From the sequence record OZ035819.1: a stretch of 43,420 nt of DNA. One strand, written 5' to 3'. Of the stretch, positions 4,337 to 37,122 are shown one piece after another (within the stretch, counting starts at the first letter, position 1; the number at the start of each line of letters is the position of its first letter). The notes under the pieces are model-generated. The model made no database searches. It saw nothing but the letters and a program-made list of their open reading frames with translations, and was not told where the DNA came from. Source of the stretch: Kagunavirus LM02P1. The position numbers and the translations under genes were made by a program.

Positions 4337-4365
4337 AAGGCCCCGTTATGGGGCCTTAGTTTTAT
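4337..4365. terminator. bidirectional intrinsic terminator
   Basis: GC hairpin AAGGCCCC-gttat-GGGGCCTT flanked by T-runs on both strands, between convergent genes 3872..4333 (+) and 4362..4655 (-). Confidence 0.6.
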
Positions 4366-4675: not shown

Positions 4676-4704
4676 ATAGTACCCTATTATATTGGGGTGT
4701 GCAA
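4676..4704 (-). promoter_or_regulatory. sigma70-type promoter (TTGCAC-N17-TACTAT) for 4362..4655
   Basis: Read on minus strand; core 27 nt (4673-4699) identical to 13905-13931. Confidence 0.55.
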
Positions 4705-4770
4705 ACTATTTGTCTACGTATTCCAGTTATTCCGCTCAATTGTAAATGTTGGAATAAACTATTCGAATAG

Positions 4771-4799
4771 TTGACTTTTCACTGAAAATGTGCTAAGCT
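4771..4799 (+). promoter_or_regulatory. strong sigma70-type promoter TTGACT-N17-TAAGCT with TGn extended -10
   Basis: -35 at 4771-4776, -10 at 4794-4799 preceded by TGC; perfect palindrome CTATTCGAATAG at 4759-4770 abuts the -35. Confidence 0.55.
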
Positions 4800-4805
4800 C
4801 CACCT

Positions 4806-5006
4806 GAGCTTGTGAAGTATGAACAAGCGACCGCGGCGCGGGCAGGTAACGGAGCGGGACGTAAGTCCTGAGTGTAGTTACGCTGACGCGTTCGGAAGGG
4901 CCATACTCTATTGCTTGTGTAAAAAGTAGCTGGTTTACTGAGATTACGCCGTTTTTATGTTTAAATGATAAGGACTAGCGCCCCGCTTTATGGCGGGGCT
5001 TTACTT
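4806..5006 (+). ncRNA. candidate ~200-nt noncoding transcript (or leader) between promoter 4771 and terminator 4978
   Basis: GC-rich, stop-rich region bounded by a promoter and an intrinsic terminator; only coding option is a 36-codon ORF (4819..4929) without a clear RBS. Confidence 0.3.
4978..5006 (+). terminator. intrinsic terminator
   Basis: Hairpin CGCCCCGC-tttatg-GCGGGGC followed by TTTACTT, 18 nt upstream of the Rz ATG. Confidence 0.5.
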
Positions 5007-5023
5007 ATCGAGAAAGGAGAAAC

Positions 5024-11909: not shown

Positions 11910-11935
11910 AAGGCCCCTTCCGGGGCCTTTTTCTT
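11910..11935. terminator. bidirectional intrinsic terminator
   Basis: Hairpin AGGCCCC-ttcc-GGGGCCT followed by TTTTCTT; same hairpin family recurs at 4337, 22745, 25394 and 28778. Confidence 0.65.
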
Positions 11936-22744: not shown

Positions 22745-22768
22745 AAGGCCCCAAACGGGGCCTTTTCT
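22745..22768. terminator. bidirectional intrinsic terminator between convergent late (+) and replication (-) transcription
   Basis: Hairpin AAGGCCCC-aaac-GGGGCCTT followed by TTCTC. Confidence 0.65.
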
Positions 22769-28777: not shown

Positions 28778-28801
28778 TAAAAAGGCCCAATGAAGGGCCT
28801 T
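28778..28801 (-). terminator. intrinsic terminator after SSB gene
   Basis: Hairpin AGGCCC-ttcatt-GGGCCT followed by TTTTT on minus strand. Confidence 0.55.
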
Positions 28802-32348: not shown

Positions 32349-32378
32349 ACTATAATAGCTAACTATTCATGATGTCAA
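32349..32378 (-). promoter_or_regulatory. sigma70-type promoter TTGACA-N18-TATAGT for 31805..32317
   Basis: Read on minus strand; leader 32318-32348 shares 15-nt AAACGAGAGGAGAGA with the leader at 37094-37122. Confidence 0.5.
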
Positions 32379-32442
32379 TGGGCTTTTCTAAAATAATTAA
32401 TATGGTACTATTCACATATCAACTAACTAAGGAGTAATTGAC

Positions 32443-32658
32443 ATGCAACCATCTGAACTAGGCATCCGTGTAGAGCAACGCCGCAAAGAACTCGGCATCT
32501 CCCAGCGCCGTCTGGCTGTCCTGGCCGGTGTTTCTCAGGGAGCGATTAACCAGCTGGCACTTGGAGTAACTCAGGACGTCCGACCGGCGACGCTGTTTAA
32601 ACTGGCGGAAGTGCTGGAAGTAGACGCCAAGTGGCTGGCGTTCGGTGAAGGGGCTTAA
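32443..32658 (+). CDS. XRE-family helix-turn-helix transcriptional regulator
   Basis: 71 aa; HTH LGISQRRLAVLAGVSQGAINQLALG; RBS AAGGAG; only + strand gene inside the - strand replication module. Confidence 0.7.
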   Translation: MQPSELGIRVEQRRKELGISQRRLAVLAGVSQGAINQLALGVTQDVRPATLFKLAEVLEVDAKWLAFGEGA

Positions 32659-34943: not shown

Positions 34944-35002
34944 ATTGTATATTCCTTCAGCAAGTAATTTGGCCTCGGCGTTCGCCGCGTCGGGGCTTTC
35001 TT

Positions 35003-35278
35003 TTATTCCAGGTCGCGGGAGATATTACCCTCGGGGACCAACACTTTTCCAATACTTCTCGCTTTCTCTGTAATAGGCGTCGCTCTTGTTGCCCGATAAA
35101 ACTTTCCTTTATTAAGAATCTCACCATGTCGCTCGAGCACATCTAAAGCATGTTTAATCGGGCTTACACCGTAATTATCCAACCGGTATCTCCGAAGCCC
35201 GTCTACTGTAAAAGCGCCGTTCGCTTCGGTCAGTCTGCGTGCACACATTAATATGTTTTTCTGGAATTTAGTTAGCAT
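35003..35278 (-). CDS. hypothetical protein (91 aa)
   Basis: Second gene of leftward early operon. Confidence 0.4.
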   Translation of the reverse strand: MLTKFQKNILMCARRLTEANGAFTVDGLRRYRLDNYGVSPIKHALDVLERHGEILNKGKFYRATRATPITEKARSIGKVLVPEGNISRDLE

Positions 35279-35447
35279 CTTTTACGTTCTCCTTAATCCA
35301 CGCCTCCACAGTAGCGCGGTCAAACGTACCCGGCTGACGGTAGCCGTTAATAACACGACAACACTCCGGGAACTTTCCTGACCGAAGCCAGCGATTAAGA
35401 GTCATAGGGGAAACCCCGATTAAGTCTGCTACTTCTTTCTGTGTCAT
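35268..35447 (-). CDS. AlpA/excisionase-type HTH DNA-binding protein
   Basis: ATG at 35447 with RBS; motif MTQKEVADLIGVSPMTLNRWLRSGKFP. Confidence 0.55.
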   Translation of the reverse strand: MTQKEVADLIGVSPMTLNRWLRSGKFPECCRVINGYRQPGTFDRATVEAWIKENVKDAN

Positions 35448-35476
35448 TTTATGCGCCCTCTTTATCAAGTGAAACA

Positions 35477-35505
35477 ACTATAACACCTACAATAGCCAAA
35501 CACAA
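35477..35505 (-). promoter_or_regulatory. sigma70-type promoter TTGTGT-N17-TATAGT for leftward replication operon
   Basis: Hexamers with 17-nt spacer read on minus strand upstream of 35447. Confidence 0.45.
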
Positions 35506-35868
35506 CCTATTGACAAAATAAAATGTAGCTGTAAAATCAACGTATCGAAGAGCTTTAGTTCAGAATTACTTAGAAACAATATTCTTAAGTCTCGGGTACT
35601 TAAAGCCCCGCCCTAAAGCGGGGCGCTAAATAGTACTCTTGGTAACGTTAGTATCTAAGTTTCCTCAAAGTAACAGCAAGTGGCAAGAAAGCCCCCGTCT
35701 ATTTAAATTTTACCCTCCTACATAAGCCACTGATAATTAAAAGTTTCTATAGATGCCGTAAGCAAGGTAGAGAGTACTTCACTCCGCTGGGGTGGGCTAA
35801 CGCCCACCCACTGCGTTGCGTACTCTTTTAAGAAACGAAAGAATCACAACGGCAACGTAACTATTCTC

Positions 35869-35897
35869 TTGCACGCCCCAACATAATAGGATACTAT
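35869..35897 (+). promoter_or_regulatory. sigma70-type early promoter TTGCAC-N17-TACTAT
   Basis: Same architecture as 37065-37093, 4676-4704 and 13908-13936; followed by conserved leader TTATCGAAACGAGA. Confidence 0.55.
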
Positions 35898-35931
35898 TCA
35901 CTTATCGAAACGAGACAGAGGAGTGAGGGTT

Positions 35932-36114
35932 ATGTTTAAACGTGGTCAGTTGGTTAAAACTGTACAGGGCCAATATGGAATTATTAAACGAGTTCCGAAT
36001 AAAGTTCCAGGGTCGTACCATCTCACGCACCCAGAATGGGACTTTGACGTGGGGGTGCGTGAAGACGAGCTAACACTCATCGGCAACAATTTTAAATTCA
36101 AAGGGGCGAAGTGA
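35932..36114 (+). CDS. early protein (60 aa)
   Basis: ATG at 35932 with RBS GGAGTGAGGG; first gene after early promoter. Confidence 0.45.
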   Translation: MFKRGQLVKTVQGQYGIIKRVPNKVPGSYHLTHPEWDFDVGVREDELTLIGNNFKFKGAK

Positions 36115-36347
36115 TGGAAGAATTAATTTGCGTTACCAGTCTCTGCGATTACTTCACAGAAGGAAAGCGTTATACGTTAAGTATCGATGGGTACGTTACC
36201 TCTGATGATGGCGATGATTATCGGGTAACTGACGAGGATGTATATGAAGGGCGTATGGGTGTTTATACCTGGAGATGGTTAGCATTATTCACAACGGCAT
36301 CGAATCATGATGCTCGTGCCGACGACTCTGAGGGAGGTTGCCGTTAA
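36114..36347 (+). CDS. early acidic protein (77 aa)
   Basis: ATGA coupling; D/E-rich (DDGDDYRVTDEDVYEG). Confidence 0.45.
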   Translation: MEELICVTSLCDYFTEGKRYTLSIDGYVTSDDGDDYRVTDEDVYEGRMGVYTWRWLALFTTASNHDARADDSEGGCR

Positions 36348-36604
36348 TGACTAACACTGAACTGGAAACTGTTGCCGAAAAACTGCATAAGGCGCGAGTA
36401 ATGGCCCGGGGCGCTGGACTGGAGCAGTTTTACAACATGTGGCGCACCGCAACGCGCGACCCTGATTTTCTGCGAACTGGGTGTCTCTTGTATAAAGACG
36501 TTTATCCTGTTCGTGCTCGCAAGGACTACGGGTGGGTTCGTGAGACACCTAATCTTTTGTGGTGTTGGGCGCATGGTGAGTTTTGGGTAAGGGTTAAGGA
36601 CTAA
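36347..36604 (+). CDS. early protein (85 aa)
   Basis: ATG at 36347 with RBS GAGGGAGG. Confidence 0.45.
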   Translation: MTNTELETVAEKLHKARVMARGAGLEQFYNMWRTATRDPDFLRTGCLLYKDVYPVRARKDYGWVRETPNLLWCWAHGEFWVRVKD

Positions 36605-36769: not shown

Positions 36770-36792
36770 CTTACTATTTTACTGAGTGACTT

Positions 36793-37064: not shown

Positions 37065-37093
37065 TTGCACACACAGATATAATAGACTACTAT
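37065..37093 (+). promoter_or_regulatory. sigma70-type promoter TTGCAC-N17-TACTAT
   Basis: Same architecture as 35869-35897; followed by leader TTATCGAAACGAGAGGAGAGAGAAG. Confidence 0.55.
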
Positions 37094-37122
37094 TCAGTTA
37101 TCGAAACGAGAGGAGAGAGAAG

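Follow-up and report, generated by a model that had tools for sequence, protein, structure and literature searches.

In phage lambda, late control involves the constitutive PR' promoter, a 194-nt '6S' transcript, the tR' terminator and the Q antiterminator. Among the leader RNAs of other systems, HK022 put is about 70 nt long, and transcription-dependent phage origins are represented by the primary origin of T7 and by oriF and oriG of T4. Here, we analyse a non-coding gap at positions 35448-35931 in the genome sequence of Kagunavirus LM02P1 (record OZ035819.1; this stretch of 43,420 nucleotides is referred to as the window), which separates a leftward replication operon from a rightward operon, and compare it with these systems. 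Phages of the genera Kagunavirus and Jerseyvirus are often isolated for therapy and biocontrol, directed against Escherichia coli and Salmonella, and as small chassis for synthetic biology. Their transcription programme is essentially unmapped, and the gap is blank in most records; the one Guernseyvirinae RNA-seq paper that we found gives gene-level values.

Three promoters and a predicted leader RNA in the early gap

The gap, with its three promoters, is a transcription control region, and we suggest, at a probability of roughly 0.55, that it serves as the early regulatory hub of a K1G-like Kagunavirus and encodes a non-coding leader or attenuator RNA. The original prediction had described a regulatory hub with divergent promoters. 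Our data support the hub and sharpen it to three promoters, one of which bears an operator-like palindrome, and a conserved non-coding spacer that is predicted to be transcribed. Both of the promoters that had been listed, one leftward and one rightward, hold up; their number does not, since a third promoter, the rightward P_R1, had been overlooked. The boundaries of the non-coding interval were exact, with the start codon of the leftward gene (CAT on the plus strand) at 35445-35447 and the first rightward ATG at 35932. Moreover, when intervals are ranked by the absence of open reading frames (ORFs) of at least 40 aa, the gap is indeed the largest in the window, the next ones being 368 and 331 bp.

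The leftward promoter P_L (35477-35505, minus strand) reads TTGTGT at 35505 to 35500, a 17-nt spacer and TATAGT at 35482 to 35477. Its -35 element is weak (3/6), so that it falls below the threshold of the promoter scanner. Relatives keep a promoter at the same position, and those with unrelated flanks have TTGCTT or TTGATT-17-TATACT there, in agreement with the prediction of this promoter. P_R1 (35510-35537, plus strand; TTGACA-16-TAAAAT; predicted start near 35544) is back-to-back with P_L, 4 bp from its -35 element. Its hexamers and its spacing, within the 16-18 bp range, are those of a sigma-70 promoter; with 11/12 matches to the consensus it is the best such match in the gap, among the four best in the window and tied for best in a scan of half the genome. 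GenBank records and IMG/VR contigs yielded the equivalent gap of 43 distinct relatives, and each of the 43 has exactly one match to TTGA[CA][AT]-N16-18-TA[AT][AG]NT on the same strand and in the same slot, 242-309 nt 5' of an invariant block and across four unrelated spacer sequences.

All 43 relatives share a layout of promoter, spacer of 240-310 nt, GC hairpin, conserved block and second promoter, and 377-414 nt separate the leftward start codon from the invariant block. The spacer sequence itself falls into at least four unrelated types with mosaic joins, and in the window the breakpoints are at 35724 and 35839. Conservation is tiered: 35839-35922 is kept in nearly all relatives; a subset retains 95-98% identity over the 199 bp at 35724-35922, with an adjoining gene at only about 83%; and the left half of the gap is restricted to the K1G clade. 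Based on the absence of a conserved ORF, on folding and on the conserved spacer length, we predict a non-coding leader RNA of the K1G type on the plus strand at 35544-35832 (RNA-1). The spacer of about 290 nt has a plus-strand folding z-score of -2.4, and two of its sub-domains reach -3.4 and -3.8.

These two sub-domains hold the GC hairpins of the original prediction, both of which lie where they had been placed. Hairpin 1 (GCCCCGC/GCGGGGC, 35605-35611/35618-35624) is the tip of the 5' stem-loop domain (z=-3.4); on the plus strand, its domain at 35596-35636 consists of an outer stem GTACT/AGTAC and the inner stem at 35605-35624 with the loop CCTAAA. Hairpin 2, with the 8-bp stem GGGTGGGC/GCCCACCC (35790-35797/35802-35809), forms the core, at 35790-35809, of an extended, terminator-like stem-loop of 58 nt on the plus strand at 35770-35827 (z=-3.8), which is closed by GAGAGTAC/GTACTCTT, then TTAAG (as RNA, a closing stem GAGAGUAC/GUACUCUU, then UU). 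With 8/8 GC-rich pairs and a tetraloop, the core has the GC stem-loop of an intrinsic terminator. The hairpins are real and non-random: when the gap was shuffled 1000 times with its dinucleotides preserved, one or more GC-rich perfect hairpins of this kind arose with a frequency of 0.006, and two or more with a frequency of 0.001. A GC hairpin of 6-9 bp, 31-45 nt 5' of the invariant block, is found in 43/43 relatives, in which the counterparts of hairpin 2 use three unrelated stems (GGGTGGGC, GGGCAGGC and GGTGCC), and pairing survives the changes seen within a type, which are C-G to T-A, A-T to G.T and the gain of one pair. In relatives of type B the counterpart is followed by TTTAGTT, and the record of phage fBC-Eco01 has an annotated terminator at the equivalent place.

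The other spacer types that fill this slot are, by their patterns of sequence variation, structured plus-strand RNAs. An alignment of the S type (A2; 20 sequences), which comprises the 5' domain of a second cassette described below and copies from other phages, supports a four-helix structure: 95.2% of the cells are paired, compared to 87.1% in shuffles and 29-45% in slid controls, and the covariation score of 0.243 versus 0.103 was reached by 0/500 shuffles. Pair 32-92 occurs as CG (9), UA (9) and AU (2). Two invariant G.U pairs are impossible on the minus strand, and the RNA is therefore assigned to the plus strand. Similarly, in the long hairpin of the J type the helix GUAAN/NUUAC is found as A-U, G-C and U-A.

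Combining these data, we suggest that host E. coli RNA polymerase would fire from P_L and P_R1 right after infection and that P_L would drive the operon of HTH_17 and helicase-primase leftward. The transcript from P_R1 would be the non-coding leader RNA, and the stem-loop of hairpin 2 would stop or slow most of these transcripts to give mainly a short RNA and some read-through. The rightward small genes would then receive regulated transcription from the second rightward promoter, P_R2, by means of a palindrome-binding phage protein, plus the read-through.

Several observations weigh against a leader RNA in the window, and the RNA evidence for its own spacer type is indirect. The covariance model R1, which we built on the 5' domain of the S-type leader, has no match in 35448-35931; it matches the window at 4806-4922 (139.9 bits) and the equivalent gap of phages Sciku and fPoEco01. 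The 5' half of the K1G-type spacer has no significant similarity to the Jersey type or to the RNA of the second cassette. Given that there is no significant sequence or R1 match, the link between RNA-1 and the well-supported RNAs is positional and through the shared 3' 199 nt. The K1G-type spacer is available from only five near-identical relatives, with differences outside the stems, and in these five there is no covariation for hairpin 1 or the 5' domain. By z-score, folding of the spacer favours the minus strand (-4.0) over the plus strand (-2.4), and, with no covariation in its own type, the strand of the RNA in the window is assigned from the conserved promoter and from the other spacer types. 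A strict terminator scan of 35000-36400 returned no terminators, and hairpin 2 fails its rule of 5 T in 8: no U run directly follows the core, which is followed by ACTGCGTT, and only the extended stem ends in CUCUUUU. A natural variant, GTACTCC, weakens the plus-strand outer stem. The start and end of RNA-1 were placed from the sequence, and no Q-like antiterminator was detected among ten neighbouring proteins scanned, the whole proteome not having been searched.

Alternatively, the spacer may have no function as RNA and be a recombination-prone mosaic junction between two divergent operons, its hairpins being either bidirectional terminators, left over or serving as insulators, or DNA palindromes to which a protein binds. 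The four or more unrelated spacer types with their breakpoints at 35724 and 35839 fit this idea, as does the folding of the minus strand, which at least equals that of the plus strand. Read on the minus strand, hairpin 1 precedes TTTAAGT, as in the terminator that it copies, and in the K1G-type gap of IMG/VR contig L027 it is flanked by A and T runs on either side. Yet length, promoter and hairpin position persist in 43/43 relatives despite the turnover in sequence, the 199 bp at 35724-35922 are better conserved than the adjoining gene, other types display RNA-type covariation with G.U pairs, and no minus-strand transcription unit to the right needs termination. On balance, we regard a spacer devoid of RNA function as rather unlikely and favor the leader or attenuator RNA.

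The runs in L027 (AAAAGCCCCGC...GCGGGGCTTTAAAA) make hairpin 1 terminator-like in both directions, and in the same contig 10 bp are inserted between the invariant block and P_R2. Three relationships of the hairpins were considered and rejected. First, the stem of hairpin 1 resembles the CCCCGC/GCGGGG stem of the repeat hairpin in the E. coli clustered regularly interspaced short palindromic repeats (CRISPR), but the flanks differ and so does the stem of the counterpart in Salmonella phages. Second, TGCCGT (35753-35758) and ACGGCA (35849-35854) could pair around hairpin 2, but the sole informative variant (GCCGCA, in phage Bas73) is uncompensated. Third, by eye the 5' half of the window's spacer looks like the long hairpin of the Jersey type (loop CCTAA; stem CCCCGC versus TTCCGC); the local alignment is not significant, its score being reached by 26/1000 shuffles and by an equally high reverse-complement control. 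Rfam 15 has no family near the gathering threshold in the gap (best E-value 3.1), and at this threshold there were no hits in the whole window, including the gap of the second cassette, or in three relatives. No homologues of RNA-1 or of the RNA of the second cassette were found in 5,426 E. coli genomes.

A second cassette before the late genes

The next-largest gap is filled by a paralogous cassette on the plus strand at 4771-5009. It consists of the promoter TTGACT-17-TAAGCT (4771-4799), a structured RNA of about 200 nt (RNA-2) and a predicted terminator at 4980-4999 followed by TTTACTTATC, and it ends 14 nt 5' of the Rz spanin gene (5024); Rz, Rz1, scaffold, major capsid and head-tail genes lie downstream. 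The cassette is present at full length and with 95-99% identity in 179 phage records, those of Salmonella phages included. Its conservation exceeds that of the neighbouring capsid genes: in Salmonella phage S100 its identity is 98-100%, compared to 65-90% for the neighbouring scaffold and capsid genes. Among genera the terminator stem of RNA-2 covaries (GCCCCGC, GCCCTGC, GCCCGGC). Model R1 finds one copy per genome in the RNA-2 slot; Sciku and fPoEco01 have a further copy, which occupies the position of the early gap, and both are also present in several IMG/VR contigs. As judged from these sequences, the early gap and the late-gene gap hold interchangeable cassettes of one design. Should read-through into the lysis and structural genes be under the control of the leaders, these would constitute the timing switch of this phage group.

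In the records, the cassette at 4771-5009 is unannotated or labelled 'hypothetical protein', and it has no Rfam match. A 36-aa ORF inside RNA-2, which is annotated in some records, was rejected as a gene; frameshifts break it in natural variants.

RNA-1 and RNA-2 have no sequence similarity beyond one inverted hairpin. The 28-mer at 35601-35628, which contains hairpin 1, recurs in inverted orientation at 5003 to 4976 with 27/28 identical bases (E=7e-8), and this inverted twin is the predicted terminator of RNA-2. Given this inverted relationship between hairpin 1 with its flanks and the terminator region of RNA-2, the two plus-strand RNAs would share about 45 nt of complementarity. The transcript from P_R1 could thus act in trans as a small RNA, the hairpin 1 segment of the K1G clade pairing with the terminator and 5' untranslated region (UTR) of the late leader (4976-5012) and altering termination or the translation of the spanin. 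In line with such a function, each of the two RNAs has a strong promoter of its own, and the predicted duplex has an energy of -70 kcal/mol in the window and -75 kcal/mol in K1G, compared to -35 +/- 3.7 kcal/mol for shuffles. The complementarity is, however, confined to the K1G clade, and Bas73 and Ent2 lack it. In the window, in K1H and in the relative L028, a one-base difference between the loops is left uncompensated. Pairing is also disfavored by the high stability of both segments as hairpins, and the twin could be merely a copied terminator. Because of the restriction to one clade and the lack of covariation in the loops, we consider antisense control unlikely. A still broader proposal combines both lines: Guernseyvirinae would possess an undescribed family of cassettes, each of promoter, leader RNA and terminator, that head the rightward operons, and in the K1G clade the early leader, through an antisense match of about 45 nt with the late leader (its terminator and 5' UTR), would set the timing of lysis and capsid genes by pairing of the two RNAs. 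In this combined form we consider the proposal a long shot.

A further recurrent hairpin, AAGGCCCC-loop-GGGGCCTT, is found at 4337-4357, 11910-11929, 22745-22764 and 28782-28801, and AAGGCCCC is an over-represented 8-mer. The copies at 4337-4357 and 11910-11929 score as terminators on both strands and lie at switches in gene orientation.

Palindrome-bearing promoters, genomic setting and the origin question

The second rightward promoter, P_R2 (35869-35897, plus strand; TTGCAC-17-TACTAT; expected start near 35904), had been predicted correctly, as borne out by paralogous copies and by conservation. Near-identical copies lie at 4704 to 4673, 13936 to 13905 and 37065-37096, and the promoter is 95-99% identical in Kagunavirus and 84-93% in the Jerseyvirus of Salmonella. 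The palindrome AATAGGATACTATT (35885-35898) overlaps its -10 element. The pattern AATAG-N4-CTATT occurs in eight exact copies of 14 bp in the window, compared to 0.055 expected (4675, 13907, 25707, 29505, 32354, 35885, 36765 and 37081), all at intergenic, promoter-like positions and in both orientations, and so defines a family of at least eight palindrome-bearing promoters including P_R2. Three of the copies sit in TTGACA promoters of leftward replication genes with 11/12 matches. Given that the hexamers are sigma-70-like and the core is palindromic, the palindrome probably serves early and middle promoters as a common operator, recognized by a phage DNA-binding protein. A gene for an HTH_3 protein (Cro/CI-type, 71 aa; 32443-32655, plus strand) is located inside the leftward replication block between two palindrome copies, and is flanked by divergent operator-bearing promoters in 32349-32414, leftward at 32378 to 32349 and rightward at approximately 32385-32414. 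This protein may be the regulator of the palindrome regulon. In total, these elements provide a testable map of early control, with three promoters, an operator shared by at least eight promoters, a leader between the rightward promoters and a second cassette. A different palindrome, CTATTCGAATAG at 4759-4770, abuts the -35 element of the RNA-2 promoter. Its half-sites are those of the operator, arranged the other way round, and it may serve for activation.

The invariant block lies immediately 5' of P_R2 on the plus strand (35839-35868) and is 95-99% identical in essentially all Kagunavirus. It includes the 20-mer AATCACAACGGCAACGTAAC (35842-35861), which is found exactly in 33 IMG/VR contigs, and within it the octamer ACGGCAAC (35849-35856). 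This octamer, ACGGCAAC/GTTGCCGT, is the most over-represented 8-mer of the genome with 24 copies compared to 3.3 expected. Its sites, e.g. 814, 5459, 8843, 14164, 26020, 35849 and 36959, are found in all reading frames, on both strands and also in intergenic DNA, a distribution that excludes a codon artefact. It ranks first among 8-mers in K1G and Bas73 as well, and is elevated in Ent2. On the other side of P_R2, the 5' UTR of the first rightward gene (35904-35931, plus strand) has a ribosome-binding site GGAG at 35920-35923 ahead of the ATG at 35932.

Around the gap, the window is 94-97% identical to the E. coli phages K1G, K1H, K1ind2 and K1ind3, with 97% identity to K1G in the gap region itself, and partial matches to the gap region are found in about 300 records of Kagunavirus and Jerseyvirus (Guernseyvirinae). 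By sequence, the window is a Kagunavirus close to K1G, and its gene order agrees with that of annotated relatives. The leftward operon begins on the minus strand at 35271-35447 with a 59-aa DNA-binding protein of the HTH_17 type (Xis/MerR-like; Pfam HTH_17, E=2.9e-9; phrog_66), followed 3' by a phrog_5169 protein, a 755-aa helicase-primase (phrog_3228, E=7.9e-286) and other replication genes; relatives' records carry the same annotation for HTH_17, phrog_5169 and helicase-primase at the head of this operon. To the right, the first gene encodes a 60-aa product that matches phrog_12538, and many small genes lead to holins and endolysin and, across the permuted ends, to terminase, portal and head genes. 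Predicted plus-strand terminators inside this downstream operon lie at 36792, 4337, 7371 and 11910. A scan for transfer RNA and transfer-messenger RNA genes found none. GATC is strongly avoided in the window (10 sites compared to about 170 expected), and similarly in K1G, Bas73 and Ent2; relatives' records annotate a DNA methyltransferase.

The gap had also been put forward as a candidate replication origin, and this part of the original prediction gained no support. An origin might be activated by transcription, with the transcript from P_R1 opening or priming the DNA as in T7 or T4. The location beside the helicase-primase operon, the strong promoter with its predicted non-coding transcript, an AT-rich patch at approximately 35690-35750 and an invariant block with the most over-represented octamer of the genome are all compatible with this possibility. 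The AT-rich stretches that had been noted are only moderate, however: the gap has a GC content of 0.43 compared to about 0.50 genome-wide, and its 60-bp AT maximum of 0.72 is matched or exceeded at six other sites, up to 0.77. The cumulative GC-skew minimum does fall in the gap, as expected of an origin. But the skew flips at every change in gene orientation, the minus-strand block at 11.9-14.8 kb included, and it thus reports the direction of transcription; it does not discriminate between the two cases and cannot locate the origin in these genomes. Iterons (at least three direct repeats) are absent from the gap, in which only two-copy repeats of 8-14 nt are found, and DnaA boxes are not above chance (one site with 2 mismatches compared to 1.5 expected per 485 bp). 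Close relatives with the same helicase-primase have the left 250 bp swapped for unrelated sequence, and the same kind of cassette also precedes the late genes. We consider it quite unlikely that the gap is an origin.

Finally, an unannotated small protein gene can be dismissed as highly improbable: although a 106-aa minus-strand ORF is annotated in the equivalent gap of Bas73 and a 35-aa ORF in that of Sciku, the gap of the window has no plus-strand ORF of at least 30 aa and on the minus strand only ORFs of 30 and 34 aa with TTG or GTG starts, none of the four spacer types has a conserved ORF on either strand, within each type the length, position and presence of ORFs vary, and several relatives have no ORF of at least 25 aa.

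Comparison with described systems

The leader cassettes are not described in the literature or the RNA libraries that we searched, and we found no literature on non-coding RNAs or origins of these phages. The palindrome promoter family, by contrast, is already in the literature: for phage fBC-Eco01, a 'phage promoter' consensus tgAATAGTa-ccTATTat-T was published (PMC9825357), and P_R2 fits this consensus read on the other strand. In the equivalent gap, the fBC-Eco01 record (OM272052) has the same succession of elements, namely a host promoter, then a terminator, then a phage promoter, and the paper lists them likewise. The authors assigned the phage promoters to a phage-encoded RNA polymerase, and non-coding RNA between the promoters is not discussed (PMC9825357). 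The elements in the window differ in having sigma-70-like hexamers and an operator-like palindromic core, and no gene for a phage RNA polymerase is annotated in the relatives' records examined.

With the transcription-dependent origins of T7 and T4, the gap shares a promoter and a downstream non-coding, partly AT-rich stretch beside replication genes. It differs from them in that the AT-rich stretch is short and unexceptional and that the sequence is not kept among relatives sharing the replication proteins. The leader, attenuator and antitermination RNAs HK022 put and Bacillus EAR offer a second comparison, given that they too are structured RNAs directly 3' of a promoter at the head of an operon with terminators inside it; the element described here has no sequence or Rfam match and exceeds put considerably in length.

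The closest working analogy is that of lambda PR'-6S RNA-tR', and we draw it without claiming membership. As a sequence layout, the lambda-like architecture of a promoter, a short transcript predicted to be terminated and an operon is present. Both systems have a strong host-type promoter, a non-coding transcript of about 200-300 nt, which is a predicted one here, and a hairpin end directly 5' of an operon. There is no sequence similarity to lambda, and in the early gap the second promoter P_R2 is placed between hairpin and genes and the hairpin is without a canonical U tract. The cassette at 4771-5009 follows the lambda late module also in its gene content: in both cases, the operon begins with a lysis gene, here that for the Rz spanin, and continues into head and tail genes.

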